From an uncultured Pseudomonadota bacterium (GTDB lineage: Bacteria > Myxococcota_A > Polyangia > Fen-1088), in contig CAVZEF010000006.1 in assembly GCA_963774325.1 (NCBI GenBank), positions 1,214,003 to 1,278,002 on the forward strand: a stretch of DNA of 64,000 bases. The letters run 5' to 3'. The notes beneath the pieces are model-generated. The model was not told the DNA's origin. It made no database searches and was given only the letters and a program-made list of their open reading frames with translations. Each line of letters opens with the position of its first letter. The stretch's first letter is position 1. Below are positions 4,319 through 20,800 of the stretch, in pieces. A program made the translations under genes and the position numbers.

Positions 4319-4405
4319 TGTCGACCTCTGGATAGAACCTGGAGCCTGCACCGCTCATGATCCGGTCGAACGTCTTGCGGCTACCCAGCCACCCCGTAGA
4401 GCGCA

Positions 4406-4567
4406 TCAGCGTACTCTGCCGCGGTCCTCGACGCGGACCACTCCTGCCCGTTTCAGCTCGCGAACATGCCGCACCATCTCCGTCATCGGGATGCGCTTGG
4501 ACCCGAAGGACCGGACGAGAGTGTCGTCGACATCTACATACGCGACCACTTGCCCCGTGTCGGTCAT
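4406..4567 (-). CDS. Small hypothetical protein (54 aa) with a HAD-motif-I-like DVDDT. It may be a fragment.
   Basis: ATG overlaps the upstream stop (ATGA) at 4564-4567, suggesting translational coupling with the membrane protein. Local GC is lower. Confidence 0.3.
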   Translation of the reverse strand: MTDTGQVVAYVDVDDTLVRSFGSKRIPMTEMVRHVRELKRAGVVRVEDRGRVR

Positions 4568-4947
4568 CGCAGCTCCACCTGCTGCGCGGTCGCTGCCGAA
4601 GATGCTTCGATGTACACGGCGTACTTGCGACGAAGCCTCCAACCAAAGATCATCCAACCGAACCAGATCGCCGCGGCGAGGGCGTAAGTCACGGGCGCAG
4701 GCTTCTCGCCGTACAAGCCGAGTGCCTCGAGGCCGAAATAGAGTGGGAAGATCGGAGCCGTCGTCCAGAACAGGAACGATGCCGCATACGGCGACTTTCG
4801 CCGATACAGGACAAAAAGCACCGCCGATTCAACGGTGGCAGACAGGCTCAGAACGCGAATATTGCCGCGGCTCATCTCGTAGATGGTTGTGGCGCAGTTC
4901 AGCACCAGAAGTGTTGGACACAAGCGCGACAAGGGATTGTTGTTCAT
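4564..4947 (-). CDS. Hypothetical integral membrane protein (3-4 predicted TM helices)
   Basis: ORF 4564..4947 has hydrophobic stretches (LFVLY, FLFWTTAPIFPLYFGL, ALAAAIWFGWMIFGW). It sits in a low-GC pocket. Confidence 0.45.
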   Translation of the reverse strand: MNNNPLSRLCPTLLVLNCATTIYEMSRGNIRVLSLSATVESAVLFVLYRRKSPYAASFLFWTTAPIFPLYFGLEALGLYGEKPAPVTYALAAAIWFGWMIFGWRLRRKYAVYIEASSAATAQQVELR

Positions 4948-5117
4948 GGCTCTGGTTGTGGCGACGAGTCCGGCCGACGATACCTCGGCTCAGCGGCGCG
5001 GCGAAGCCCCCTCCCCTGCGACGGCGGGTTGGTCGGCCTTCCGCGCCGCCTCCTCCAGCGCCTGGACCACCTTCGTCCGTTTGGATTCTCGGCACAGATC
5101 GGCGGGGAGGCGCTCAC

Positions 5118-7055
5118 TCAGAGCACGGCGCTGTCCAGGATGTGATTGATCGCCATCTGCAGGCCGTCGAGCGTCTGCGTCGTCCCCGCCGGCCAGTCGC
5201 GCGTGTTGATGACGTAGGCCCAGTCGACGTCGTCGCCGCGGGACTGCGCCCAGGACGATGCGCCCGGCGTGCTGCCGGCGCGCGCGCCCGGAGCGCGCCG
5301 CCCGTTGCCCCAGACCGCGTGGCGGTGGATGAACTGCACCATCGCCATCGCCGACGCGCCCGTGCCGTCGTTGGGCGCGCCGACTTCGTTGATCTCGCCG
5401 TCGCCGCCGTACACCGACGGCACCAGCAGCGGCGACGTCAGCTCGAGAGGGCTCAGACCCAGCCCCTGGTCCTCGGCGATCGCCTCGTCGTCGGTGCGCC
5501 CCGCCGGTCGCGTCGAGATCACGCGCACCTGGGTGATGTCGGCGGGCGCCAGCAACGTCTGGCGCACATAGGTGAAGTACGGCGTGCCGGTCACGCGCTC
5601 GACCGCCGCGCCCGCCAGCAGGTAGCCGTAGTTCGAGTACTGGCTCTTTGCCCCCGGCGCGAAGTCGAGCGGGCGCCCGTACATGTACTTCGCGATCTCC
5701 AGCTTGGTCACTGGTTGCCCGAGCCCCAGCGCGAGCGCGATCGTGCGCATGCTGTACGTGGGATCGAAGCCCGATCCCGTGGGCGAATCGTCGTAGCCCG
5801 CCGTGTGGTCGAGGAGCTGCTGCACGGTGATGGTGTCGCTGCGCGGGTCGGCCGGGCGCGAAAACCCGAGCAGCGGATAGACCGCCGTCGTCGGTTTGAG
5901 CTTGCCCGCGTCGTAGAGCGATTGCACCGCCGCCGCCAGGAACATCTTGCTGCAGCTCGCGAGCAAGAACCGATCGCTCACCTTGGTCACGCGATAGCCC
6001 GGCTCCGCCCACGTGTACGCGCGCGCGAGCTCGAGCGCGCCGTTCTTGCCGACGGCGACCTGGGCGGCGCGCACGCCGTTCTCTTTCATGAAGGCTTGCA
6101 TCGCGTGGTCGAGCGCCGCCAGCGCCGGCACCGGCGTCCCCTCGACCGTCCAGTGGCGCGGCGACGGGACGTCCTGCTTCGCGAAGATCGCGGCGTAGCG
6201 CGTGTCGCCGCCCGCCCCGCCGCCCTGCACGCAGATCGGGTAGAAACCCTGCGCGCTCTGGATGTCGAATTCCTTCTGGTAGTCCGCCGCGGTCAGGCCG
6301 TGCCGCGCGACCCACGGGCCCACGACGTCGTCCTTGAACACCGAGCAGTAGTTCTGATCTCCGGAGAGCGCGACGTAGGCCAGCCGATACCCGGCGAGCC
6401 GATGGCCGGGCAGCTGCGTCTCAGCGTCGAACGTCGTCTGGTAGGCGGCCGCGGTGTCGGCCGCGTGCACGTGCCATTTGACGTAGTTGGGGTTCGCCTG
6501 CCAGACCGCCGCGTAGCGCTGGTCGCCGGCGGTGCCGTAGATCGCCACCGAGCGCAGCACCAGGCGCGCATCCGCCGCCGCGCGGTTCTGATACTGGAAG
6601 GTTCCGACCTGGGTCGGCAGCCCCGACGTCAATCCATGTCGCGCCACCCAGGGGCCCGCGACCCCTTGCTCGAACACCGCCGCGAAGATCGCATTGGCGC
6701 TGGCGCCGGTCGCCGACACCAGCACCGGCGCGTAGCCTTGCGCCGTGTGCGTGTTGAAGAAGGTCTGATACCCCGCGGCGTCGACGCCGTGAACGGCGAC
6801 CCACGCCGGCCCCGAGCGCACGACCCATACCGCCGCGTAGCGCGCATCCCCCGGCTCCCCGTAGACGCTGAGCGAGATCATTCGATAGCCCAGCCCGGAC
6901 AGCTTGTTGAAGCTCGCCTGATGCTCCGCCCCGGTCACCCCGTGATACGCCTGCACCGCCATCGTCGCCCCTCCCTCGAATCCCAACGCCACGCCCGTCG
7001 CGAGCCCGGCGCGGCAGGACACTAAACGAGGAAGGTACGCCGATCTTCCCGGCAA
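5118..7055 (-). CDS. Beta-lactamase-family serine hydrolase (SxxK motif SCSK) with four N-terminal ~55-aa repeats
   Basis: The C-terminal half reads ...DRFLLASCSKMFLAAAVQSLYDAG... (class C / EstB-like). The N-terminus has four repeats of the form YAAVW...PWVARHG...YQ..F...GY.P. Confidence 0.75.
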   Translation of the reverse strand: MPGRSAYLPRLVSCRAGLATGVALGFEGGATMAVQAYHGVTGAEHQASFNKLSGLGYRMISLSVYGEPGDARYAAVWVVRSGPAWVAVHGVDAAGYQTFFNTHTAQGYAPVLVSATGASANAIFAAVFEQGVAGPWVARHGLTSGLPTQVGTFQYQNRAAADARLVLRSVAIYGTAGDQRYAAVWQANPNYVKWHVHAADTAAAYQTTFDAETQLPGHRLAGYRLAYVALSGDQNYCSVFKDDVVGPWVARHGLTAADYQKEFDIQSAQGFYPICVQGGGAGGDTRYAAIFAKQDVPSPRHWTVEGTPVPALAALDHAMQAFMKENGVRAAQVAVGKNGALELARAYTWAEPGYRVTKVSDRFLLASCSKMFLAAAVQSLYDAGKLKPTTAVYPLLGFSRPADPRSDTITVQQLLDHTAGYDDSPTGSGFDPTYSMRTIALALGLGQPVTKLEIAKYMYGRPLDFAPGAKSQYSNYGYLLAGAAVERVTGTPYFTYVRQTLLAPADITQVRVISTRPAGRTDDEAIAEDQGLGLSPLELTSPLLVPSVYGGDGEINEVGAPNDGTGASAMAMVQFIHRHAVWGNGRRAPGARAGSTPGASSWAQSRGDDVDWAYVINTRDWPAGTTQTLDGLQMAINHILDSAVL

Positions 7056-7086
7056 GGCGCGAAGAACTCTCGCGCTTTGACCAGGC

Positions 7087-7908
7087 TCATGGAACGGGGA
7101 GAACGTCGATGACGACGCCGGCCTTCGAGGAGAGCAGCGTCACGGGATCGAGAACGATGACCTCCAGTTTGGCTGGACCTGGATCCGTTGCGCGGAACAC
7201 GACCGACGACTTCCGGTAGTCGATCGGGTCGAGCATCGGCCAGCTCGCCGGCCGAACATCGATCGTAGGGTTGTGAGCCAGGACGTCCTTCGGAACGTGA
7301 ACCTGCACTTCGAACGTGTCGCCCACCCGGACGGGACTCTTCGAGACCTCGATGCTCGCAATCCTGGGTACACGAGACGCAATATCGGGAACGAGGTGGG
7401 CGGCCAGAAAGGACTGAATGCGCCGGGCGAGCGGCATCACCTTGGGACCCCGGCGATGATTGTTCAGCGACACACACACATTTCGAAAGACCCAAAGAAT
7501 GTCGCCACCGTCGTGAGACTCGAACTCGACCGCCAGCTCGCCCACCTTCTCGAGCGCAAGAGCCATGTGATGCTTCTCGGTCGTCGTGTTCATGGCATTT
7601 TCGATCAGCCGCGCCCGGGCACCGGCGGGTCCGGTTCCCAAGACGTAAATCTCGACAGTGATCGAGTCGGCGCGACGCTGCCAGTCCCAGGTGGCCAACC
7701 CGACTCCCGACTCGAAAGGAAGGGCGTCGTGCTGGAGCAGGCGGAACCCCTGTAGATCCTCTGACAGGACTGACGTCAGAAGGCGCCAGTCGGCGAGAAC
7801 CCCGTCAGTCGCATCGAGCCCGCCCAGGGCGTCGATACCAACCAGCGCCTTGAAGTCCGTGACCTTCGCATCGGGGTCATACTCGTTCGAATCGTCACCT
7901 TCAGTCAT
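7087..7908 (-). CDS. Hypothetical protein (273 aa), downstream partner of the transglutaminase-like protein
   Basis: Start MTEGDDSNEY sits at an ATGA overlap (7905-7908) with the upstream gene stop. GC is ~60% against ~70% in the flanks. No recognisable motif. Confidence 0.55.
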   Translation of the reverse strand: MTEGDDSNEYDPDAKVTDFKALVGIDALGGLDATDGVLADWRLLTSVLSEDLQGFRLLQHDALPFESGVGLATWDWQRRADSITVEIYVLGTGPAGARARLIENAMNTTTEKHHMALALEKVGELAVEFESHDGGDILWVFRNVCVSLNNHRRGPKVMPLARRIQSFLAAHLVPDIASRVPRIASIEVSKSPVRVGDTFEVQVHVPKDVLAHNPTIDVRPASWPMLDPIDYRKSSVVFRATDPGPAKLEVIVLDPVTLLSSKAGVVIDVLPVP

Positions 7909-9068
7909 TTGACGACGAGAACTCCAATCTCCGGTTGCACGTCCTCCGGACGCCCGGGTCGACACCAGCGCTCGTACAGGGATGGCGTATCATCGATGCT
8001 GTCGGCCAGGTACTCTGGAACCGTTTCGGTCGCGAGGTGAGGCTTCGCACACGCATCGACAGCCTTCGCACCGTAGGTGACGGCAAATGCGTGATTGCCG
8101 AACGCGGTTCGCCTCACTGAATCGGGCGGCACCAACCTCAACGATTCATCGTCCCTGAAAAATGGATTGTTACACAGCCCAACACCCACCAGATTCGTGG
8201 GTCGAATGTACCCAAAAGGCTTGAGAAACAGCCACGCGGAAACAACGCCGACGGCGCCCGCCAGTGCTTGAACGGCCGCAGCCTGGTCGTAGCAGTTACA
8301 GACAGCGCTCCGCCTCAACATGTAGAGCCCCAGATTGAAAGTACCGCCACGAGCGTTCACGCCGTATTTAGCGGCACCACTATCTGTCTCGTAACGGAGC
8401 CCGTGCCCGCTGTGGCAGTAGGCGGCGATGGTCGCCATCACCGCCCATCGATTGTTCCCGGTCACACCGACATGCCCGAAAAGAAATCGGAGCACCTCGG
8501 CCCATACGCCGTACTTCCGGTACGGCACACTCGGGATGGCCAGGATGAAGTAGATCTCGGCGAACGTCGTGCCCAGGCTGGCGCTGATCGGAGTTGCCTC
8601 CACGTCCAGGCGCCACGCGATGCGTCCGCGGCAAGCGCGCAGCTCCTCGGGGGGATTCGCAATGCGGGCGCGGACCGTGTGTTCGCCGGCGCTCGAGGGG
8701 CAAGTGCCCTCGATCGACACGCCCGAAAGCGTGCCGACCAGGCGCGCCTCTCCGCTGACGTTCCGGGACTTGGTGATCCTCAACTTCACCTCGACGGCGT
8801 AGGGACCGCCGAGGCCTCCAGCGAGGAACACCGCCGGGCGCTTCGAATAAGGGTCGACCGGCAGGTGCAATAGCCTGGCGATCCGATTCCAGACGTCCTC
8901 GATCGCGTGCTCTTTCCCTATTTCCCAGTGCGGCCCCTCGACGGTCGTCCGACCGCGACTGACCTTGATCCCTGACTTGAAGGTGATCGACACCAGCTCG
9001 GCGGCGAGCTCCGCGTCCGGCGGCGGCGTCGCCGCCGGCACGACCGCGACGGGCTCACCGACCTGCAC
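7905..9068 (-). CDS. Hypothetical protein with a putative transglutaminase-like / papain-fold Cys-His-Asp core
   Basis: The C-terminal region reads ...SAVCNCYDQAAAVQALAGAVGV...(60 aa)...GNHAFAVTYGAKAVDAC. This resembles the TGc consensus C..FA...L....GIP...HAW.EVY...W..D. GC is low. Confidence 0.5.
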   Translation of the reverse strand: MQVGEPVAVVPAATPPPDAELAAELVSITFKSGIKVSRGRTTVEGPHWEIGKEHAIEDVWNRIARLLHLPVDPYSKRPAVFLAGGLGGPYAVEVKLRITKSRNVSGEARLVGTLSGVSIEGTCPSSAGEHTVRARIANPPEELRACRGRIAWRLDVEATPISASLGTTFAEIYFILAIPSVPYRKYGVWAEVLRFLFGHVGVTGNNRWAVMATIAAYCHSGHGLRYETDSGAAKYGVNARGGTFNLGLYMLRRSAVCNCYDQAAAVQALAGAVGVVSAWLFLKPFGYIRPTNLVGVGLCNNPFFRDDESLRLVPPDSVRRTAFGNHAFAVTYGAKAVDACAKPHLATETVPEYLADSIDDTPSLYERWCRPGRPEDVQPEIGVLVVK

Positions 9069-9147
9069 GACGGCGCTCCGGATGTGTCAACCCACGCACG
9101 GCTGACTTATCGCCGGAGCGCGAGGAAAGTTGCGTGCGGGCGCAACG

Positions 9148-11865
9148 CTAGTACGTATCGTGGATCGACGTCGCCTTCACGCGCGGCACCGGGCCGGTCC
9201 ACTCGACGGTGACGGCCTCGCCGGGGAGCAGATCGAAGTAGTTGTCCGAGAACATCTCCTCGCGCCGCGACGGCGCCGGATCGGCGTCGAGGTGCACCGC
9301 GCGCGCCAGGCGCCGCGCCGCGACCCGCACCGACGCACCCACGGTCGCGCCCGCGGGGTGCGGCGTCGACCGTGACCGACAGCTCGGGATCGGGCAGCAC
9401 CAGGTCCTTGGTCTTCTCGAAGTAGTAGAAGCCGCGCGCCAGCCGTTCGCCGTCCGGCGACGCCAGCTCCGCCACCAGCACGACGTGCGCGGGATTGGCG
9501 CCCTGCAACGCCGCCGCGCGCGGCCAGCTCGACAGCACCGCGCTCGCGTTCGGCGCCAGCGTGACGTCGCTGGCCTTGCGCCACAGCTCGCGCCCGTCGA
9601 AGTCGACCAGCCGCAACGTCAGCTGCGCGCGCGTCGGCGCGCGCAGATCGGAGACGCCGTAAACGCGAATCTCGCCGCTCTCCTCGACGGGGCTGAGCAG
9701 GATCGGCGCGAAGAAGCGCCGCGCGGCGTAGTGCAGCGCCTTCCAGCGGCCGAAGTAGTCGATGCCGGACCACGACGCCACCGGCCAGCAGTCGTCGAGC
9801 TGCCAGTACAGGCTGCCCTGGTTGTACGGCATGCGCCGGCGGTGCGCCTCGGCGGCGTAGCTGATCACCGTCGCCTGCAGCACCTGGCTCATGTACAGGA
9901 ACGACGCGAAGTCCTTCGGCTTGCGAAAGTCGCGGTCCATGTACGTGCGCACCAGCGGATTGCCGCGCGGGTGGCGCTGGTGCGACGAGCATGACCGGCG
10001 ACTCGATGTCGTAGTCGGCCGGCGTCGCGTAGCGCGCGACGCTGGCGAGCTCGGGGAACGACTGAAAGCCGTACTCGCTCATGAAGCGCGACGTGTTCGG
10101 GCCGTAGTCGCTGTACGGCGCCTCGGCGTGCCAGACGCCCCAGTAGTGCATGTCGCCGTAGCCGACCTTGTTGGCTGCGATCTTGTCGTCGTTGGCGCTG
10201 GGTGAGCTGCGCGTGTAAAAGCGGCCGGGGTCTTCCTCGGCGACGACCTTGGGCAGCACGTCGTAAAAGACGCGCTTGTACGCGCGCCAGATCTTGTCCT
10301 GCGCCGCCTTGTCGAGGTGGAACTTCTCCTGCCAGCCCCACCCCTTCCAGGCGACCTCCATCTCGTTGTTGCCGGCCCACAGCGCCAGGCTGGGATGGTT
10401 GCGCAGGCGGCGCACGTTCTCGATCGCCTCCTGGCGGACGTTCTCGATGAACGGCGCGTCGCCGGGATACATGCTGCAGGCGAACATGAAGTCCTGCCAC
10501 ACCAGGATCCCCAGCTCGTCGCAGAGGTCGTAGAAGCGATCGTCCTCGTAGATGCCGCCGCCCCAGACGCGCAGCATGTTCATGTGCGCGTCGGCGGCCG
10601 ACTGCACCAGGAAGCGATAGCGCTCCGGCGTCACGCGATCGAGGAAGCTGTCCGACGGGATGTAGTTCGCGCCCTTCATGAACACGGGCGCGCCGTTGAC
10701 CTCGACGGTGAAGCTCTTGCCGTCCTTGTCGCCGCGATGGACGACCTCGAGCGTGCGCAGGCCGACGCGCACCGAGCGCGTGTCGCGCACGATGCCGGCG
10801 ACCGACAGCTCGGCCGCGATGGTGTAAAGACGCGCCGGGCCGAGCCCGTTCGGCCACCAGCGCTCGGGCCGATCGATCGCGAGGTCGACCTCGATCGCGT
10901 TGCGGCCCGCCTTCAGCGTCGCGCCCGCCTCGGCCAGCGCGCGCGCCGCCCGCCAGCGACAGGCGCAGCTGCGCGCGGCCCGCGTGCGACGCCATCACGG
11001 TGGTGGTCACGCGCAGCGTCGCGCGCGCATCGGTGAGCGACGTCTGCAACGCGTGCACGTCGTCGATGCGCGCCGCGTCCCAGGCCTCGAGCCGCACCGG
11101 GCGCCAGACGCCGCTGGTCACGAAGCGCGGGCCCCAGTCCCAGCCGTAGTGATACGGCGCCTTGCGCGTGTACATGCTCACCATCGGCGTGGCCTGGTCG
11201 TTGCTGGCCGGAAGGATGTAGCCGAGCCGCTCGTACGCCGGCATCACGTGCTCGATCGGTGAGCGAAACCGAACCAGCAGCGTGTTCTCCCCCTTGTGCA
11301 GGTGCGATTTCACGGCGACGCGCCACGACCGGAACATGTTGTCGGCGCTCAGCACCGACGCGCCGTTGACGAAGACCTCGGCGTAGGTGTCGAGGCCCAG
11401 GAAGTCGAGCTCGATCCGCTCGCGCGCGAGGAGCGCGTCGTCAGCGACGAACGTCGTGCGGTACTCCCAGTCTTCCTTGTCGATCCACTGCTGGTCTTTC
11501 TCGTTCGTGCCGACGAACGGGTCGGCGATCTTGTGGTTCGCGAGCAGATCGGTGTGCACGCAGCCCGGCACCGTCGCCGGCAGCCAGCCGCTGGCGTCGG
11601 CGTGCGCGTGGGCGTCGGCGTGCGCGTGCGCGTGGGCGTCGACATCGGCGGCCGGTTTCCCCCCGTGCGGCGCCTGGCGGAACGTCCAGGGCCCGTGCAG
11701 CTCGGTCGAAAGGCGCGCCTCGGAGGTCGCCGCCGCCGCCGCCGCGCTGGCAGGGAACGCCGCTCCGACGTCACCCGGGGCGCCCAAGCTCATCCCGACC
11801 ATGACACCAGCCGCCAGGAGCCGCGTCGTCGGTGGAACCCCCGATCGCTCCATCGTCTGCGACAC
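9148..11865 (-). pseudogene. Glycoside hydrolase family 2 beta-mannosidase, interrupted by at least 4 frameshifts
   Basis: Four ORF pieces (9889..11865, 9177..10790, 9107..9952, 9148..9342) together reconstruct one beta-mannosidase. Residues seen include WGGGIYEDD, NEMEVAW, VRTYMDRDFRKPKDF and a C-terminus ...VTVEWTGPVPRVKATSIHDTY. Each piece decays into R/G-rich nonsense at a frame switch. Confidence 0.7.
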
Positions 11866-11992: not shown

Positions 11993-12064
11993 GGGCGTTT
12001 AACTCAGCGGAAGAGTGCGACCTTCACACGGTCGAAGTCGCAGGTTCAATCCCTGCAACGCCCA
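11993..12064 (+). tRNA. tRNA-Val (anticodon CAC)
   Basis: The sequence folds as a cloverleaf: acceptor GGGCGTT/AACGCCC; D stem ACTC/GAGT; anticodon stem CGACC/GGTCG with loop TTCACAC; T arm GCAGG-TTCAATC-CCTGC; discriminator A. No CCA is encoded. Confidence 0.8.
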
Positions 12065-12070
12065 CAAAAA

Positions 12071-12109: not shown

Positions 12110-12481
12110 TGGGTACCGAATGTGCCTGTGCCTGTGGTGCTGACGCCCGCCGAGGTCGTGACCCTCCTGGCGGGCTTGACTGGGCCCACCGCCCTCGTGG
12201 GTTCCTTTACGGCGCCGGCCTGCGCCTGCTCGAGGCGCTTCGATTCCGCGTCAAGGACGTCGATTCCGAGCGGCGCGAGATCATTGTCCGGCGCGGAAGG
12301 GCCAGAAGGATCGGCACACCGAGCCGCCGTCGCCGCCAGAATTCCCAAGCACCTCACGCCCCATACGCTCCGCCACTCCTTCGCGACGCACCTCTTGGAA
12401 TCCGGCTACGACATCCGCACGATCCAAGAGCTCCTCGGTCACAAGGACGTCAGCACCACGATGATCTACCCCACGTCTTGA
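12110..12481 (+). pseudogene. Tyrosine recombinase (IntI/XerD-like integrase) remnant. The N-terminal half is missing, and it has an internal frameshift or deletion and a truncated C-terminus.
   Basis: The frame ending at 12481 reads ...[43 protein letters not shown]. An upstream frame reads ..[30 protein letters not shown](K)GQKDRHT... with one missing base. The R..H..Y C-terminal catalytic motifs are present but the gene is clearly not intact. Confidence 0.6.
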
Positions 12482-12704
12482 ATCGAGGCGCCGGTGGCAT
12501 TCGCAGCCCCCTCGATCGCTGACCAGCCTGCGACCTCTCGGCATACCTCTCGCGGCCCTGGCCGCGGCCCTTATCGAATCATTCAGCGAGGCCCTGCCTC
12601 GCAAGCCCGCGAGATCGCGCTGGAGCGGTGCTCGAGGCGACCTGGACATGCTGTGGCCAAGGATTATCCAACTGTGGAGAATACGAGTTATCCGGACGGG
12701 CGGC

Positions 12705-13037
12705 ATGCGATACGAAGTGCTTTCGGGCGATACCGAGATCGGCTGGTCCGAACTCGAGTTCGGTGACCCTCCAATGGGCGTCGCCCACGGTCGATTCCAT
12801 CCGTCCAAGTTCTATCGTTCCTCTAGCCACGCAGGCCCCAACAGAGACCTGCGGGCGCGTCCGGAGGGAAGCGGGGAGTTCTTCCAGCCCAGCGGCGGCG
12901 TGTTCATCGAGGATCTATCTGCCGACTTTGGACCCGAGGGAGTCGAGGTCAGCGTTCTCGGCGTAGACGGCGCGACCTACCTTCGGTTCTTCCCCCACCA
13001 CGTAAAGACCTACGAGGATCAGTTCCGCTCCAAGTGA
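12705..13037 (+). CDS. Cassette ORF 1: small hypothetical protein, immunity-protein-like
   Basis: Translation MRYEVLSGDTEIGWSELEFGDPPMGVAHGRF...YLRFFPHHVKTYEDQFRSK. It is preceded by a GTTATCC box at ~12687 and followed by an attC-like site. Confidence 0.5.
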   Translation: MRYEVLSGDTEIGWSELEFGDPPMGVAHGRFHPSKFYRSSSHAGPNRDLRARPEGSGEFFQPSGGVFIEDLSADFGPEGVEVSVLGVDGATYLRFFPHHVKTYEDQFRSK

Positions 13038-13042
13038 TCGCC

Positions 13043-13098
13043 GGCTAACATGGCGTTGCAGCGGTCGATCATCGCCGCTGAACACCAAGACGTTCGAC
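13043..13098 (+). repeat. attC-like site 1 (56 nt)
   Basis: Layout: GGCTAAC, 3 nt, GCGTTGCAGCGG, spacer, CCGCTGAACAC, spacer, GTTCGAC. The arms pair with one unpaired G. The GTT box lies 19 nt before the next ATG. Confidence 0.55.
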
Positions 13099-13116
13099 GG
13101 ACCGGGAAGTGCCTCA

Positions 13117-13578
13117 ATGAGGACCGTGGAGGAATTGACCGCCGCTCTCGCTTTGGCGCCTTTAGCGCACCGCGACGCCAGACGCCGCGGTCCCGCTGAT
13201 CCGACATCCTTCACTGATTTGGAGTCACGCTTTCAAGTCAAACTCCCTTTCGACGTTCGCGCCTTCTATTCCAGGATGGACGGGACCGACCTGCTGGACG
13301 CCGAGCACGGCCTGACGACACTTTGGCCACTGGATCGCTGGACTCGCCTCGACCAAGAGGCCCCGCAGTACGCCACGGATGCCCCCGCCGGCGCCATCGT
13401 CCTCGCGGACTATTCACTCTGGTGCTGGGCGTATGCGGCCGAATTCGAACCTGGGACTGAGCGGACGATCGTACACATTGTCGGAGGCCCTGGCGGCGTG
13501 CCAATCGCGGAGACCTTCACAGAATTCCTTGAGTTAGTGGTGACAAACAGTCCGCGCCTCTTTGGGGAGGCTGGCTAA
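13117..13578 (+). CDS. Cassette ORF 2: SMI1/KNR4 (SUKH-1) family immunity-like protein
   Basis: Translation ...FDVRAFYSRMDGTDLLD...TTLWPLDRW...IVLADYSLWCWAYAAEF...IVHIVGGPGGVPIAETFTEFLELVV matches SUKH hallmarks. Confidence 0.6.
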   Translation: MRTVEELTAALALAPLAHRDARRRGPADPTSFTDLESRFQVKLPFDVRAFYSRMDGTDLLDAEHGLTTLWPLDRWTRLDQEAPQYATDAPAGAIVLADYSLWCWAYAAEFEPGTERTIVHIVGGPGGVPIAETFTEFLELVVTNSPRLFGEAG

Positions 13579-13635
13579 CCGCGCGTTGCAGAGGACGGCG
13601 GTTCGCGCCGCTGCTGAACGCCAGTATCGTTGGGC
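13573..13635 (+). repeat. attC-like site 2 (63 nt)
   Basis: The stop codon is embedded in GGCTAAC. GCGTT-G-CAG pairs with CTG-AACGC with a bulged G. Then CAGTATC and GTTGGGC, 7 nt before ATG 13643. Confidence 0.6.
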
Positions 13636-13642
13636 AGACGAG

Positions 13643-13927
13643 ATGTCCTTGGGAGCTGGGCCTAAGGTCGAAGAATGGCGGCGGAGTTCTGCCGCCCTTC
13701 CGATCGAATGGAAGGGAAACCTTGGAGACGACTGCACGGCCACGTGGGCAGGCCTCACGTTGCGAGCCGAATCCATGAAGCGGGGCTCCTGGTGGTGGGC
13801 GGTCAACGATGATCGCAGCGGCGAGACGATCGATTCTTCGAACGAGTCCACCGAGCGGTTCACGAATGGAAAGCAGGCGCGCGCAGCTGCCGAGCGTGTC
13901 GCGAGGAAGTGGCTCGCGGGGCTGTAG
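13643..13927 (+). CDS. Cassette ORF 3: small hypothetical protein (94 aa), immunity-like
   Basis: Translation MSLGAGPKVEEWRRSSAALPIEWKGN...GSWWWAVNDDRSGETIDSSNESTERF... Start taken at the ATG just after the GTTGGGC box. The track ORF 13562 start lies inside the attC site. Confidence 0.5.
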   Translation: MSLGAGPKVEEWRRSSAALPIEWKGNLGDDCTATWAGLTLRAESMKRGSWWWAVNDDRSGETIDSSNESTERFTNGKQARAAAERVARKWLAGL

Positions 13928-13932
13928 CTGCC

Positions 13933-14020
13933 CAACAACGCGTTGCAGCTGTCGGCCGCCCTCGGTCGGCGCTTCGCGCCTCCCTCTAGCGTTTGCAGCT
14001 CAACGCCAGTAACGTTCGAC
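13933..14020 (+). repeat. attC-like site 3 (88 nt, with a duplicated GCGTTGCAG module)
   Basis: Elements in order: CAACAAC; GCGTTGCAGCTG; GCGTTTGCAGCTCAACGC; AACGCCAGTAAC; GTTCGAC, 10 nt before ATG 14031. Confidence 0.5.
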
Positions 14021-14030
14021 GGACGGCGAG

Positions 14031-14435
14031 ATGCGGTTCTCAGGAGTAGTGGCCTTTGTCGTACTCTTGGGGTGCGCCGGACCGGGAACGGTGACGGTCG
14101 GACGGAGTCTCGAGGGAGTCCAGTTCAGTTTCTCTCGCGGAGGCGCGGAGGGACTGGAGTTGATCGGGGTAGAGGTATTCGAATGGAATAGCGGTGTCCG
14201 GGGTAGCACCGTGTGCACGCTCGGTTTGAAGGCCGTTGTCCAGACGCATCCTTCGACTCTGGTTCGCTGGGTCTATGGCAACGCGCCTCCCGACGGTGAA
14301 TACCGGGTAAGCGGCTGCGTCGCTCTCGTCCCAGGCCGCGACTACGGTGTCGCAGGGTTTCGATACGACCACCGCATCGTATTGACCCGGTTCCGAGTCG
14401 TGAAAGACGGCTCAGTGATCGGAGACGCGAAGTAG
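14031..14435 (+). CDS. Cassette ORF 4: small lipoprotein (lipobox LLGC)
   Basis: Translation MRFSGVVAFVVLLGCAGPG... gives signal peptide plus Cys. It is a beta-rich 134-aa protein. Confidence 0.55.
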   Translation: MRFSGVVAFVVLLGCAGPGTVTVGRSLEGVQFSFSRGGAEGLELIGVEVFEWNSGVRGSTVCTLGLKAVVQTHPSTLVRWVYGNAPPDGEYRVSGCVALVPGRDYGVAGFRYDHRIVLTRFRVVKDGSVIGDAK

Positions 14436-14469
14436 GAGCAGCTTGTGTCCCCTCCGCGTCTCGCCTGCC

Positions 14470-14542
14470 CGTGGCGCCGTCCATCCCGGCGTTGAACCTG
14501 CCGGCGCTTGCGCGCCGCAGGTTAACGCCAGTAACGTTAGAC
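14470..14542 (+). repeat. attC-like site 4
   Basis: GGCGTT-G-AACCTGC pairs with GCAGGTT-AACGCC (one unpaired G). Then AGTAAC and GTTAGAC, 13 nt before GTG 14556. Confidence 0.5.
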
Positions 14543-14555
14543 TGAGAAGCGAACT

Positions 14556-14857
14556 GTGGCCCACTATCGAGTCTTTCTGCGCGGCGCGAACTTCCTAGTG
14601 AACGTCGACGCGAGGCGAGGCCGACGCGGATCGGCTTCTTCACGACGCGCTTCGTTCAGGCGAATAGTCGCGACGGAGCGGAGCTTCTGGCGGTAGATCT
14701 GATCCGAAGCGATAAATGGCTCAGAGGTGCCGTGTCCAACTCCCCATCGGACCCTCCGCGGATCTTCGCCGAGGAAATCGAGGTGGTCGAAGCCGACCAT
14801 GATCCTGGCTTAGGGTCCGGCTTCAGCCTCTTCCCGATGGACGCCTCCGACGCCTGA
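14556..14857 (+). CDS. Cassette ORF 5: hypothetical protein, disrupted by one frameshift near 14605
   Basis: Frame a gives VAHYRVFLRGANFLVNVD. It then shifts into the frame reading EARPTRIGFFTTRFVQANSRDGAELLAVDLIRSDKW...FPMDASDA*. GC3 favours the plus strand over the antisense ORF 14564..14800. Confidence 0.3.
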
Positions 14858-14869
14858 GCCGTGATCCCC

Positions 14870-14912
14870 GTCTAACCCCCCCGGTCCAACCCGGCGTTGC
14901 CGTCGGGCAAAG
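14870..14912 (+). repeat. Degenerate attC-like site 5
   Basis: GTCTAAC lies 13 nt after the stop codon, followed by GGCGTTGCCGTCGGGCAAAGC, a weak palindrome. Confidence 0.25.
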
Positions 14913-15082
14913 CATGACGATAGGCGTGCCGCGACCGCAGAAATCTGAGGGTCGTCGGGCGACAGCACCCCCATGCATTCGTTGGAAGCCCAGGAGAAGG
15001 GGGGACAATGAACAGTTCTGCGTTATCCTGGGCGTGGTCTTGGCGGGCACGAAAAATGCTCCGAGGGAGAGCCGGGGGATAG

Positions 15083-16183
15083 ATGAAGCCAGAACATCGC
15101 GATCGGACCAGGGCAACGATGGCTGTCGCTCTGGGGCTCGCGCTCTTCGCCGGCTGCGGCGACCAGGCGGGCGACAACGGAGTCGCTCCCGGAACAACCT
15201 CCAGCCCGGCTGGGGCAATTGCCATCGCGTCGGACGCGACCGGACAAAAGCTCGTGGTGGTGGGTGGTGGCATCTGGACATCGATCAACGGCGGCAAGAC
15301 GTGGATCGAGCGGGCGCCGTCCGGGCCGGCGCACATTCAGCAATGGACGTCGGTCGCGTCCGACGCGACGGGGACGAACCTCGTTGCGGTGGTCAATGGT
15401 TTTTATGATCGGCCCGATTCGAATCCGGCAGAGTTCAGCGGGGACGTTTGGGGTTCGGCCGACAGCGGCGCGACCTGGATCGACCGGACCGCGTCCAGCC
15501 CCGCCCATGGCCAAGCGTGGAGGTCCATCGCGTCGGATGCGTCGGGAACGAAGCTGGTCGCCGTGACGGCCGGCTTGGGTGCCTTTGGACCCGGCGCCAT
15601 CTGGACGTCGACCGACGCTGGCTCGACCTGGACCAACCGGACCGGGGCCAATGCTGCGATGAGCGGACAAAGTTGGTCGTCGGTCGCGTCAGATGCGACC
15701 GGGCAGAACCTGGTCGCCGCGGGCAGGGGCTCTGGCGTCTGGGCTTCGCTCGATGGCGGTATGACCTGGACGGACCGCACGCCTGCCGACCCCAAGTTCC
15801 AAGCTAGTTTCGGGGACCAGGTGCAAGGCTGGTCGTCCGTCGCATCCGACGCGACCGGGACCAAGCTCGTCTCGGCCGTCGACGTGGGGGACGTCTGGAC
15901 GTCGACCAACGGTGGCGTCACGTGGAGCGATACCGGCCCTGCGACGTCCTGGCAGGTTTGGTTTTCGGTGGCGTCGGATTCCACGGGGACGAACCTGGTT
16001 GCGGTCGATGGGCTCGTGAGCGGCGACAACGGGGACGTCTGGACGTCGACCAACGGCGGCCTGACCTGGACTGACCAGACTACCGGGAACCAAGCGGCAG
16101 GCGGGCCCTGGGACGCGGTCGCGTTGAACGCGGCCGGGGATCACGTGGTTGCCATCGGACGCGGCGCGATCTGGCGACAGTAA
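15083..16183 (+). CDS. Cassette ORF 6: lipoprotein with ~8 BNR/Asp-box (sialidase-like SxDxGxTW) repeats
   Basis: Translation MKPEHRDRTRATMAVALGLALFAGCG has a lipobox. Repeated motifs include SxNGGKTW, SADSGATW, STDAGSTW, SLDGGMTW, STNGGVTW and STNGGLTW. Confidence 0.75.
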   Translation: MKPEHRDRTRATMAVALGLALFAGCGDQAGDNGVAPGTTSSPAGAIAIASDATGQKLVVVGGGIWTSINGGKTWIERAPSGPAHIQQWTSVASDATGTNLVAVVNGFYDRPDSNPAEFSGDVWGSADSGATWIDRTASSPAHGQAWRSIASDASGTKLVAVTAGLGAFGPGAIWTSTDAGSTWTNRTGANAAMSGQSWSSVASDATGQNLVAAGRGSGVWASLDGGMTWTDRTPADPKFQASFGDQVQGWSSVASDATGTKLVSAVDVGDVWTSTNGGVTWSDTGPATSWQVWFSVASDSTGTNLVAVDGLVSGDNGDVWTSTNGGLTWTDQTTGNQAAGGPWDAVALNAAGDHVVAIGRGAIWRQ

Positions 16184-16373
16184 CCAAGCAGCGTGAATCA
16201 GCAAGTGCAGGGTTGCGCCCTGCCGCTGATCGGCAGATCGCTGGACGGACAAGGGAGCCAAGGTCGCCGAGTGTCCTTATCGAAATCCGGCGCGTGATTC
16301 TCGCCGCAGAAGAATCACACGTCATGGAGGCGATTCACTCCCCGCTACGAGAAGCCTCACGATATCCGGCGGC

Positions 16374-16769
16374 GTGCTTGCAGGTCCCGGGGCTCTGGCC
16401 TTGGCGAGCTCTGATTGGTACTTCGGATTCGCCGATCATCGGGCGCCACACGACGCGTGGCTGCTATCAGCCTCATTCGAAGAGACGGGGACTGGCACGC
16501 GTAGCGAGGAGCGACACGTCTCGTTGCGAGTGCGTCTGCTCGGCGCCTACCATGACTTTGAGCTGGAGTTCTTCTATCCGAAGGTCTTCTCGTACACGTT
16601 CCAGGCGGGTGCCCTGAACTCCGGCCACGGCGACTGGCGGTACGACGAGTTTCGCCTGAGCGACGACGGACACCTCGTACACGAGATCCAGTGGTGCCGA
16701 GAGGCACACGAACCGACGTGGCTGATTCACGCGGACGATGTCGTCTTCACGTCGCGCGCCGCCGGCTAA
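16374..16769 (+). CDS. Cassette ORF 7: hypothetical immunity-like protein. The N-terminus may extend to ATG 16322 with a frameshift.
   Basis: Translation ...SDWYFGFADHRAPHDAWLLSASFEE...HGDWRYDEFRLSDDGHLVHEIQWCREAHEPTWLIHADDVVF. The stop TAA is embedded in GGCTAAC. Confidence 0.45.
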   Translation: MLAGPGALALASSDWYFGFADHRAPHDAWLLSASFEETGTGTRSEERHVSLRVRLLGAYHDFELEFFYPKVFSYTFQAGALNSGHGDWRYDEFRLSDDGHLVHEIQWCREAHEPTWLIHADDVVFTSRAAG

Positions 16770-16838
16770 CCGCCGTTGCAGCGGGCGGAGATCGCACCGC
16801 GACTTCTATCCGACGCCGAGTACAAGGCGGCGTTTAGC
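16764..16838 (+). repeat. attC-like site 7 (last in the array)
   Basis: GGCTAAC-C-GCCGTTGCAGCGGG ... GGCGGCGTTTAGCGC, with a GTTTAGC box. Confidence 0.4.
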
Positions 16839-16929: not shown

Positions 16930-17814
16930 ATGCAGGTCGCGCGGCTGGAGGGCTTTTACTGGGTGGCGCGCACCGGCGGCTATGCAGCGGCGGCGCGCGC
17001 GTTCCCCTACCCGCTGACCCAGCCCGCGGTGTTTCAGCAGGTGCGCAAGCTGGAGAACGAGCTGGGCGTTCGCCTGTTCGAGCGGGTGGGCAAGGCCGAG
17101 ATGCGACTGACCGCCGCGGGCCGACAGCTCTACGATCACGCCGCGCCGTTCTTCGAACGGTTGCCGGCCGTGGAGCGCGCGCTCAAGGCGGCGACGCCCG
17201 CGCGCGAGCTGCGCCTGGCGGCCGAGGCGCTGATCCTGCAGCAGGTGTTGCCGGGCTGGATCCGCCGCCTGCAGCGCCGCGAGCCCGATCTGCGCGTCGA
17301 CGTGCGCGAGCTGGCGGCGCCCGATCCAGAGGTGGTGCGCAACGGCGAGGTCGATCTGGCGGTCGCCTACTTCCCGAACGCCCTCCCCGCGGGTCTGGCC
17401 AGCCGGCCGGTCGCGACGCTGAGCTCGTTCCTGGTCTTGCCGGCGGGCGGGTTGCTCGCGCGGCGGCCGCGCGTCACGCTGCGCGACCTGGCGAGCGAGA
17501 CCTTCGTGACCTACAACCCGGGCACCATCCACCACGAGCTGCAGCGCCGCGCGCTGGCCCGCAGCGGCGCCGCGCCCGCGCGGCTCGTCTCGGCGAGCAC
17601 GACCGAGGCGATCCTGGGCCTGGTCGCCGTGGGCGTCGGCTGCTCGCTGGTCCCCTCGATCGACGAGGCGCTGCTGCGCCGGCGCGGCGTGGTCACGCGT
17701 CCGTTTGCTCCCGGGCGGGGCCGCTTCCCGGTGCGCGCGGTGTGGCGTGCGACCGGCCCCGCGAACCCAGCCGTCGATCTTGCGCTGGGGGCGCTCGGCG
17801 AGACGAACCGCTGA
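16930..17814 (+). CDS. LysR-family transcriptional regulator
   Basis: The N-terminal HTH reads MQVARLEGFYWVARTGGYAAAARAFPYPLTQPAVFQQVRKLENELGVRLFER, followed by a LysR substrate-binding domain. It is intact. Confidence 0.85.
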   Translation: MQVARLEGFYWVARTGGYAAAARAFPYPLTQPAVFQQVRKLENELGVRLFERVGKAEMRLTAAGRQLYDHAAPFFERLPAVERALKAATPARELRLAAEALILQQVLPGWIRRLQRREPDLRVDVRELAAPDPEVVRNGEVDLAVAYFPNALPAGLASRPVATLSSFLVLPAGGLLARRPRVTLRDLASETFVTYNPGTIHHELQRRALARSGAAPARLVSASTTEAILGLVAVGVGCSLVPSIDEALLRRRGVVTRPFAPGRGRFPVRAVWRATGPANPAVDLALGALGETNR

Positions 17815-17839: not shown

Positions 17840-20800
17840 TCACTTCGTGGCCAGGTCCGGCACGGCCGACGCCGCAATCGTGAGGTGCGGCTCCCGGACG
17901 GGCTGCCTCCGCAGGCCCACGCCGCGAACCACCACGTAGAAGACCGGCGTCAGCACCAGACCGAAGAACGTCACGCCGAGCATGCCGGCGAAGACGGCGA
18001 CGCCCATGGCTTGCCGGATCTCGGCGCCGGCGCCCGTCGACATGACCAGCGGGATGACGCCCATGATGAAGGCGAACGACGTCATCAGGATCGGGCGCAG
18101 GCGGATGCGCGCGGCCTCGAGCGCCGCCTCGACGGGCGATCGGCCCTGATGCTCGAGCTCGCGCGCGAACTCGACGATCAGGATGGCGTTCTTGCAGGCG
18201 AGGCCGATCAGCACCAGGAAGCCGACCTGGGTGAAGACGTTGTTGTCCCCGCCGGTCAGCCAGATGCCGGCGGCCGCGCACAGCAGGCACATCGGCACGA
18301 TCAGGATCACCGCGACCGGCAGCGACCAGCTCTCGTACTGCGCGGCCAGCACCAGGAACACCAGCAGCACGCACAGCAGGAAGACCAGCCCGGTGGTGTT
18401 GCCCGCCAGCTGCTGCTGGTACGTGAGCTCGGTCCACTCGAAGCCGACGCCGTTGGGCAGGGTCTCGCGCGCGAGGCGCTCCATCACCGCGACCGCCTGC
18501 GCCCGAGCTGACGCCGGGCGCCGGCCCGCCGTTGATGTCGGCGGCGAGATAGGCGTTGTAGTGCAGTCTGCTGGTCGGGACCGCGCGACTGACTTCACGC
18601 GCAGCACCGATCCGAGCGGCACCATCGCGCCATCGGCGTTGCGCACCTTGAGCTGGGCGATGTTCTCGGCGGTGGCGCGGAATGTGCGCGTCGGCCTGCG
18701 ACGATCACCTGATAGGTGCGGCCGAAGCGGTTGAAGTCGTTGACGTAGACGCGAGCCCGAGGTAGATCTGCATCGTGCGGAAGACCTCGGTGAGCGACAG
18801 GCCCGCCTGCTTGACCTTCTCGCGGTCGACGTCGACGTCGAGCTGCGGCACGTCGATGCGACTAGCTCGAGAACAGGCCGGCCAGCTCCGGGGTCTGGTA
18901 CGCGCGCGACCGATCAGCGCTTGTGTCGCCTTGGCCAGCTCCTCCTCGCCGAGCCCGGCGCGATCCTCGATCTCCATCTTGAACCCACCGACGGTGCCGA
19001 GGCCCATGACCGGCGGTGGCGGGAAGACGGCGACGAACGCGTCCTGGATGCCCGCGAACTTCTGGTTCAGCGCCCCGGCGATCGCCGGGCCGTAGAGCTC
19101 CTTGGTCCGCCGCTCTTCGAACGGCGTCAGCGCAAAGAAGATGATGCCGGCGTTGGACGCGTTGACGAATCCGTTGATCGACAGGCCCGGGAACTGCACG
19201 GCGCCCGACGATGCCCGGCTGCTTGAGGCCGATCTCCGCCATCTTGCGCACCACGTCGTCGTGCGATCCAGCGTGGCGCGCGTCCGGGAGCTGGGCGAAG
19301 GCGACCAGGTAGCGCTTGTCCTGCGTCGGCACGAAGCCGCTCGGCAGGCGCGAGAACCCGAACGCCGTCACCGCCAGCAGCCCGCCGTAGACCAGCGAGC
19401 GCCACACCGCGCCGCCGGACGATCCGGCCCGCCGCGCGTCCGTAGGCATTCGGACGCGCGCACGAACAGGCGGTTGAAGCGGCGGAACAACCAGCCGAAC
19501 AGGAAGTCGAGCACGACGCGTCAGGCGGTCCGGCGTGGCGCCGTGCGAGCGCAGCAGGATCGCGCTCAGCGCCGGCGACAGCGTCAGCGAGTTGATGGCC
19601 GAGATCACCGTCGAGAACGCGATGGTCAGCGCGAACTGCCGGTAGAACTGTCCGGTCAGGCCGCTGACGAACGCCACCGGCACGAACACCGCGCACAGCA
19701 CCAGCGCGATGGCGATGATGGGCCGGCTCACTTCCTCCATCGCCTTGTAGCTGGCCTCGCGCGGCGACAGGCCGGCGGCGATGTTGCGCTCGACGTTCTC
19801 GACCACGACGATGGCGTCGTCGACGACGATGCCGATGGCCAGCACCAGGCCGAACAGCGACAGCGTGTTGATCGAGAAGCCGAACGCCAGCAGGACGGCG
19901 AACGTGCCGACGATCGAGACCGGCACCGCGACCAGCGGGATGATCGAGGCGCGCCAGGTCTGCAGGAACAGCACGACGACGATCACGACCAGCAGGATCG
20001 CCTCGAACAGCGTCTTGGCCACCTCGGCGATACCCTCGCGCACGTTGGTGGTCGGGTCGTAGACGACCTCGTATCCGATGCCCTGGGGGAAGTTGTGCGA
20101 CAGCTGCTCCATGGTCTCGCGCACCGTGCTCGACACCTTGAGCGCGTTCGAGCCCGGCGCCTGGAAGATGGCCATCGCCACCGCGTCCTTGTTGTCGAGC
20201 AGCGAGCGCAACGAGTAGCTGCCCGACCGCCAGCTCGACGCGCGCCACGTCGCCGAGGCGCGTGATCTGGCCGCCGGCGCCGGTCTTGACGACGATGTCG
20301 CGAAACTCGTCCTCGGTGGTCAGCCGCCCGCGCGCGTTGACGGTCAACGTGAAGTCGACCGGCTTGTCCATGGGCATGCCGCCCACCACGCCGGCCGCGA
20401 CCTGAACGTTCTGGTCGCGGATGGCGGCGACGACGTCGCGACGCGGACAGCCCGCGCGCCGCGACCTCGCTCGGGTCGAGCCACACGCGCATGGCGTAGT
20501 CGCCGGCGCCGAAGAGCACCACCTGCCCCACGCCGGGAATGCGAGCCAGAACGTCCTTCACTTGAAGCACGGCGTAGTTGCGCAGGTACACCATGTCGTA
20601 GCGGTTGTCGGGCGAGACCAGGTGCACGACCATCGTGATGTTGGGCGAGCTCTTGACCGTGGTGACGCCGAGCTGCCGCACCTCCTCGGGCAGGCGTGGC
20701 AGCGCCTGGCTGACGCGGTTTTGCACCTGCACCTGCGCGAGATCCGACGTCGGTGCCCACGCGGAAGGTCACGGTCAGCGTGCAGCGCGCCGTCCGACGT

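Follow-up and report, generated by a model that had tools for sequence, protein, structure and literature searches.

The 64-kb stretch of DNA analysed in this work (hereafter the window; positions 1,214,003 to 1,278,002 of contig CAVZEF010000006.1 in assembly GCA_963774325.1, from an uncultured Polyangia bacterium) carries an integron array of seven cassettes, named C1 through C7, which is preceded by a tRNA-Val gene, the remnant of an integron integrase and an attI-like region (Table 1). A preliminary description, made from the sequence alone, had proposed this array and had interpreted its cargo as a stockpile of orphan immunity proteins with no toxin in cis. The array is genuine: the integrase remnant, a conserved attI junction, attC-like hairpins and an enrichment of attC motifs all support it. 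Its six intact open reading frames (ORFs) lie on the plus strand at the positions given in that description. As for the cargo, one cassette out of seven, C2, is of an immunity type by family. The interval from 12.1 to 16.9 kb has a G+C content of 63-65% as compared to about 70% across the rest of the window, and the G+C content at third codon positions is 0.69-0.80 in the ORFs of the array and about 0.8-0.94 in host genes.

Table 1. Position of the integron features within the 64-kb window; for attC sites the R'' and R' boxes are given.
Feature	Position	Strand	Description
tRNA-Val(CAC)	11993..12065	+	Identified with ARAGORN; a terminator-like hairpin comes next; marks the left edge of the element
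intI pseudogene	12110..12520	+	Degraded integron integrase, in the same orientation as the cassettes
attI-like region	12557..12689	+	Ends at the recombination point G↓TT (12687-12689)
C1	12705..13037	+	110-aa protein of a widespread uncharacterised family
attC1	13043..13098	+	R'' GGCTAAC ... R' GTTCGAC; bottom-strand bulged hairpin, z = -3.1; motif match
C2	13117..13578	+	153-aa SMI1/KNR4 (SUKH-1) protein; isoelectric point (pI) 4.63
attC2	13573..13635	+	GGCTAAC ... GTTGGGC; motif match; direct-repeat families D6 and D7; hairpin partly recovered
C3	13643..13927	+	94-aa protein rich in Trp, from a small family known only in metagenomes
attC3	13929..14018	+	GCCCAAC ... GTTCGAC; repeat families D6 and D7; looser-motif match; inner stem folds
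C4	14031..14435	+	134-aa predicted lipoprotein of a small uncharacterised family
attC4	14479..14542	+	GTCCATC ... GTTAGAC; best hairpin of the set, -23.8 kcal/mol, z = -4.8
C5	14553..14857	+	No intact plus-strand ORF of >=50 aa; about 100 aa can be read only if the frame is changed near 14605
attC5 (putative, degenerate)	14884..14987	+	GTCCAAC ... GTTGGAA; read from the sequence; folds no better than shuffles, z = -0.06
C6	15083..16183	+	366-aa lipoprotein, probable beta-propeller with six Asp-box repeats; repeat families D1-D5
attC6	16178..16246	+	CAGTAAC ... GCTGGAC; R' box non-canonical; hairpin z = -2.5
C7	16374..16769	+	131-aa N-terminally truncated member of an uncharacterised family
attC7	16764..16838	+	GGCTAAC ... 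GTTTAGC; motif match; R''/R' pairing recovered in the fold, z = -1.6; right end of the array

The C-terminal part of the integrase remnant, about 50 aa, matches the integron integrase profile TIGR02249 at E = 6e-28; the score of 98 bits falls below the cut-off of 265 because the N-terminus and the centre of the protein are missing and what is left is split over frames. A match to Pfam Phage_integrase was also obtained (E = 1e-18), and Box I and the C-terminal tail could be recognised in other frames, so that in place of an intact IntI with its integron-specific extra domain there is a remnant of about 125 codons in several frames. The attI-like region is 93% identical to a metagenome contig, L012, which has the same GH2 gene and, at the same position, the same tRNA-Val, with no integrase and with a different run of at least 13 (about 14) cassettes. 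A 20-mer taken from the attI stretch retrieved four further metagenome contigs (L094-L097). All six sequences, i.e., the window and its five related contigs, agree through ...GAATACG[A/G]GTT, beyond which they part company, with four different cassettes in first position, and this pattern of a shared attI followed by variable first cassettes is the signature of attI x attC insertion. The extent of integrase decay varies, with a longer remnant in L095 (reverse strand, 1-930), the remnant described above in the window and none in L012 (1440-1535) or L097. All of the related contigs examined have either a degraded integrase or none, even though the first cassettes differ, which could be explained either by repeated loss of the integrase or by cassette exchange mediated by an integrase acting in trans. 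In L095 the first cassette after attI (reverse strand, about 960-1322) encodes a P-loop protein (…VIAGANGAGKTTFARELL…) which by eye resembles zeta-toxin/AAA-type kinases, and this may be a cassette of the toxin-antitoxin type.

Behind every ORF of the array lies an imperfect palindrome with ...YAAC at one edge and GTT... at the other. The motif TAAC-N4-7-GTTGCAG occurs in three copies, all of them in the array, as compared to 0.02 expected in shuffled sequences, and a looser attC core motif is present in four copies in the array and nowhere else in the 64 kb. Upon folding of the bottom strands, attC1, attC4, attC6 and attC7 gave the expected bulged hairpins, attC2 and attC3 folded in part and attC5 did not fold. 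Seven sites spaced by single ORFs can be read from the sequence (at least two being expected of an array), with attC5 doubtful.

The family of C2 could be assigned with confidence. Its product matches the Pfam profile SMI1_KNR4 (PF09346) at E = 2e-9 with 38.5 bits, above the curated threshold of 25.4, and residues 26-139 align to positions 1-124 of the 125 positions of the profile, i.e., to the whole domain; the motifs which had been quoted as an SMI1/KNR4 signature are present. This profile match confirms C2 as a genuine and orphan member of the SUKH-1 family, flanked by other cassettes and not by a polymorphic toxin gene. Orphan copies of SUKH-1 are known, so that the missing adjacent toxin does not exclude membership. 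No plasmid match was found for C2. The sister array in L012 carries another SMI1_KNR4 cassette, which is very divergent and shares with C2 only a local match of 20 residues, and in addition a 112-aa ORF with sub-threshold SUKH matches; this integron lineage thus contains SUKH cassettes repeatedly and in diverse forms. A search of the literature retrieved no paper tying SMI1/KNR4 to integron cassettes.

The family of C1 comprises 171 proteins of about 104-120 aa, all of them annotated as hypothetical and devoid of Pfam domains. The AlphaFold2 model of C1, with a predicted local distance difference test (pLDDT) score of 95, matched neither a PDB fold at E < 0.1 nor a viral fold of BFVD at E < 0.04. 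Homologues of C1 are found on plasmids of Pantoea, Kosakonia and Eleftheria, in a Pseudomonas protegens prophage with lysis genes on one side and terminase genes on the other, in Pectobacterium at a chromosomal site that is variable, and in a series of cassette-like genes that includes one for a Macro domain. The Pantoea homologue adjoins a gene annotated as "putative T6SS immunity periplasmic lipoprotein" (T6SS, type VI secretion system) and is the sole C1 context with such a neighbour. A further homologue is the attC-flanked second cassette near a tyrosine recombinase in Steroidobacter agaridevorans. The locus of the latter (BLJN01000001.1; L101, 3238-6500), where a 225-aa tyrosine recombinase is divergent from four small ORFs with clear attC-like sites between them, is a small chromosomal integron. 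For C3, eight metagenomic homologues of 63-85% identity were found, none of them annotated; one of them belongs to the array of L012 as a cassette, and a second has genes for DnaB, a primase and DNA polymerase A as neighbours. It should be noted that a joined query of C1, C3 and C7 returned only relatives of C7 and missed homologues of C1 and C3 of 85-90% identity, and the negatives of this search were discarded.

C4 and C6 had been described as lipoproteins, and both carry a lipobox (…VLLG↓C in C4 and …LFAG↓C in C6). The C4 family counts 29 cluster representatives of about 130 aa among the 1.84 billion that were searched exhaustively; the lipobox cysteine, Cys15, is invariant in 24 homologues, as are Cys62 and Cys96. 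For C5 the sequence reconstructed across the frame change matched nothing in Pfam, PADLOC, plasmids, phages or viral contigs. C6 contains six S-x-[DN]-x-G-x-T-W motifs and six SDATG-type repeats, and is similar to PDB chain 6p2m_A (E = 1e-7) in its propeller-type repeats; its Pfam matches are below threshold (BNR, PF02012, E = 0.34; Sortilin-Vps10, 17.3 bits versus 33). The Asp-box repeats of the preliminary description are therefore present, in six copies and not eight, and the cassette is indeed large (about 1.26 kb) but not exceptionally so. The same description had grouped C1, C3 and C7 as acidic, Trp-rich proteins; both properties hold for C7 (pI 5.19, Trp 3.8%), whereas C1 is acidic with a single Trp (pI 5.25) and C3 is rich in Trp (7.4%) with a pI of 7.9.

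Five homologues of C7 have 51-63% identity; a sixth, at 35% identity, neighbours the tape-measure gene of a viral contig in IMG/VR. The window copy lacks about 35-60 N-terminal residues that every homologue has, homology beginning at 16386 only, and it is thus truncated or damaged. The alternative of a frameshifted N-terminus was considered and left aside, as upstream there is only a weak collinear trace in another frame (16357-16413, E = 1.4). In the model of the family the absent N-terminus is predicted to form helices packing on a seven-stranded sheet. This model is of medium quality (pLDDT 68, predicted template modelling (TM) score 0.68), and its search against the PDB gave a single outlying fold match, 8owu_E (E = 0.011, probability 0.99, TM scores 0.31/0.50), with all other matches at E > 0.1. 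Chain 8owu_E is part of the PT7(Bc)-PIM7 toxin-immunity complex. In the source paper the toxin domains are the last 133 residues, the toxins were His-tagged and the immunity proteins untagged, and the surface of PT7 is reported to be larger than that of PIM7 (bioRxiv 10.1101/2021.10.19.465003); from these sizes, rather than from the PDB entry, the 115-residue chain 8owu_E is more likely the immunity protein PIM7. We also considered C7 as an enzyme on account of invariant DHR, HD, GH-DW and HEI motifs, and this was dropped since the homologue of the viral contig has neither DHR nor HD. Downstream of the C7 homologue in that contig (L098, 1366-1878) come a small secreted protein and a 170-aa ORF and then, close by, the tape-measure gene, an arrangement reminiscent of accessory genes clustered in the tail region of a phage. 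The other C7 homologues lie in a region resembling a conjugative element, near a DnaE-like gene of the DNA polymerase III alpha type, or in ordinary chromosomal surroundings. Two family members, P0001 (L004, 6644-8167) and P0004 (L003, 7001-8059), are fused to long C-terminal extensions; that of P0001 has long hydrophobic stretches and looks membrane-spanning, which is unusual for a simple immunity protein.

Apart from C2, profile and database searches placed none of the cassettes in an immunity family. C1, C3, C4, C6 and C7 have no match to Imm or SUKH profiles of Pfam even at E <= 1, and C1, C3 and C4 also have none to any other profile of Pfam, to NCBIfam or to PDB sequences. Profile searches of the PDB with the families of C1, C3, C4 and C7 gave nothing below E = 0.1, no cassette matched PADLOC, and tblastn of all unknown cassettes against 50,697 phage genomes found no match. 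When these cassettes were compared to plasmids, C1 alone matched. Nor did any cassette match an enzyme family with confidence. Pfam scans of the 30 largest ORFs of the window revealed no toxin, Rhs, CdiA, PAAR, LXG or T6SS domain, in agreement with what had been reported for the window before, and upstream of the array are the tRNA-Val and GH2 genes and not a cognate toxin. The same scan found sensor kinases, response regulators, a beta-lactamase/BTRD1 protein, an Ig-like surface protein, an amidohydrolase, a TonB-dependent receptor, a GH5 cellulase, GH2, alpha/beta hydrolases, M48 and M23 peptidases, LysR, HlyD, an OEP outer-membrane efflux protein, redoxins and DUF5996. In the homologue contexts of C1, C3 and C7 a recognisable toxin was never found alongside.

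On the right the array is followed by a LysR gene (start at 16930) and a resistance-nodulation-division (RND) efflux pump gene. The LysR neighbour is 83-92% identical to metagenome-assembled genomes (MAGs) of Polyangia (Myxococcota); similarity to these begins only at about 16885 and the array is absent at their LysR locus, and synteny with LysR did not lead to the array in named genomes. The RND pump gene (17840-20732, minus strand) and the GH2 glycosidase gene (9177-11865, minus strand) are each split over several overlapping frames, which suggests indel errors of the assembly, about one per kb, or else widespread pseudogenes. Since these conserved genes are frame-broken, the frame breaks of C5 and possibly of C7 may be non-biological. 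A 4.4-kb Logan contig (run ERR12037367) gives the same gene calls, and none at C5, but may not be independent of this assembly. A second stretch of lower G+C content (61-63%), at 7000-9100 (minus strand) and 4357-5142 (plus strand), has ORFs of 292, 387 and 262 aa without Pfam match and may be another foreign island. At 5121-7139 on the minus strand is a gene for a 673-aa protein with three BTRD1 repeats (the polyglycine-hydrolase structural repeat) and a beta-lactamase-fold domain.

The locus is, in our opinion, probably a sedentary chromosomal integron which has lost its integrase, i.e., a cluster of attC sites lacking an integron integrase (CALIN) with an intI pseudogene, located beside tRNA-Val in an uncultured Polyangia genome and carrying mixed accessory cargo. 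The seven cassettes would have been inserted singly at attI (G↓TT at 12687) by IntI-mediated attI x attC recombination, and decay of the integrase would afterwards have frozen the array. The cargo is composed of an orphan SUKH-1 gene (C2), a truncated member of a weakly PIM7-like family (C7), two lipoproteins (C4 and C6), a broken cassette (C5) and the mobile C1 and C3. If expressed, C2 would bind and block the toxic C-terminal domain of a polymorphic toxin coming from another cell. The other intact cassettes are conserved genes with no detectable tie to toxins, which is the usual picture of environmental integron cargo, and relatives of C1, C3 and C7 occur in integrons, prophages, plasmids and conjugative elements. 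Some observations weigh against a merely mixed cargo in a sedentary integron. Immunity proteins evolve fast and many of their families are unnamed, and because of this C1, C3 and C4 could still be immunity proteins. The C7 family has a weak PIM7-like fold lead in its predicted structure. SUKH-type cassettes amount to roughly two to three of about 21 in the window and L012, which hints at some enrichment. Finally, no promoter-like site was found on the plus strand in a scan for sigma-70-type consensus sites, the scan being uninformative.

In an alternative reading, that of the preliminary description, most or all of the cassettes are orphan immunity proteins. The array would then be a defence island against other bacteria, acquired by a social, contact-dependent myxobacterium for protection from toxins which it does not itself make. 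In favour of this are C2 itself, the fold match of the C7 family to the PT7-PIM7 complex, the unrelated SUKH cassette and the SUKH-like fragment of the sister array, the Pantoea homologue of C1 with its annotated immunity neighbour, and C4, as small disulfide-containing lipoproteins are a frequent format of periplasmic immunity proteins. There is furthermore a precedent in the integron-like rAID-1 arrays of Bacteroidales (bioRxiv 10.1101/471110). We nevertheless regard a stockpile of this kind as rather unlikely, since C2 is the single cassette out of seven to pass the family test, the five cassettes named above show no Imm or SUKH profile match, the model of C1 resembles no immunity protein of solved structure and no homologue context has an adjacent toxin. 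In addition C7 is truncated and C5 broken, and the match to 8owu is weak, with a model of pLDDT 68 and a chain whose identity was deduced from sizes. The immunity-only claim is thus supported in part, by the orphan SUKH-1 cassette and by one weak lead, C7, and to extend it to the whole array goes too far. A wider version, in which the Polyangia integron is an acquired interbacterial-defence platform holding orphan immunity genes (SUKH, PIM7-like and unnamed ones of the C1, C3 and C4 type) against the contact-delivered toxins of neighbouring myxobacteria, as a proteobacterial-type counterpart of rAID-1, appears quite improbable.

The prophage and tape-measure contexts of the C1 and C7 homologues and the replication genes beside a C3 homologue are also consistent with C1, C3 and C7 being anti-phage or phage-derived accessory genes, and chromosomal integron cassettes often encode compact defence systems (bioRxiv 10.1101/2024.07.02.601686). 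This appears very improbable, as PADLOC, the tblastn search of phage genomes and the BFVD fold search with C1 were all negative, and as an accessory position in a prophage fits immunity or other accessory roles equally well. The state of the locus could instead indicate a relic, non-functional as a unit, in which the ORFs persist merely through slow decay: the integrase is dead here and degraded or absent in the related contigs, no promoter could be recognised, C5 has no ORF and C7 no N-terminus, and attC5 and attC6 are degenerate. Against this are the intact C1-C4 and C6, the limitation of the promoter scan to sigma-70-type consensus sites and the frame breaks of the RND pump and GH2 genes, which mean that some of the apparent damage may be assembly indel error; a relic is in our view unlikely.

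The array resembles known sedentary integrons and CALINs in its promoterless single-gene cassettes, which share one orientation and have an imperfect palindromic attC (R''...R') behind each of them, in its attI junction, in a cargo of mostly unknown function and in the decay of the integrase. It differs from them in that the integrase remnant points in the direction of the cassettes ("inverted") and not divergently, in that the array abuts a tRNA gene, and in its host, an uncultured Polyangia bacterium. Recombinase-linked arrays of orphan immunity genes are established for rAID-1 of Bacteroidales, called integron-like by its authors, where a tyrosine recombinase is followed by co-directional small genes with skewed G+C content and repetitive intergenic sequences, as is the case here (bioRxiv 10.1101/471110). 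The recombinase of rAID-1 is, however, a Bacteroidales-specific XerD-like enzyme, whereas our array has an IntI remnant, attI and attC, and many rAID-1 genes match immunity families, whereas by Pfam only one out of seven does so here and one out of about 14, plus a sub-threshold fragment, in L012. C2 is like the SUKH-1 immunity proteins (PF09346) in its full-length domain match, small size, acidity and divergent copies in the sister array, and unlike those of polymorphic toxin systems in having no upstream toxin gene and in being carried as an integron cassette. The possible likeness of the C7 family to PIM7 (PDB 8OWU), the immunity protein of the DNase toxin PT7, lies in the sole outlying fold match of its model, in which helices precede an antiparallel sheet; there is no sequence similarity to PIM7, the match is weak, the window copy is truncated and the window has no PT7-like or LXG toxin.

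The locus is an ordinary environmental integron and leaves existing knowledge of integrons and of immunity proteins unchanged. To this knowledge it adds, for a lineage of uncultured Polyangia, a clearly resolved attI junction and a series of integrase decay, and also a SUKH cassette whose family is confirmed and three conserved, mobile and uncharacterised small-protein families (C1, C3 and C7). Immunity proteins have been listed among the cassette functions of plant-microbiome integrons (PMC11089894). If orphan immunity genes proved to be over-represented among the integron cassettes of social, toxin-rich bacteria such as myxobacteria, integrons would stand beside the rAID-type arrays as a general way of borrowing immunity, and the many cassette genes of unknown function would gain a testable role.

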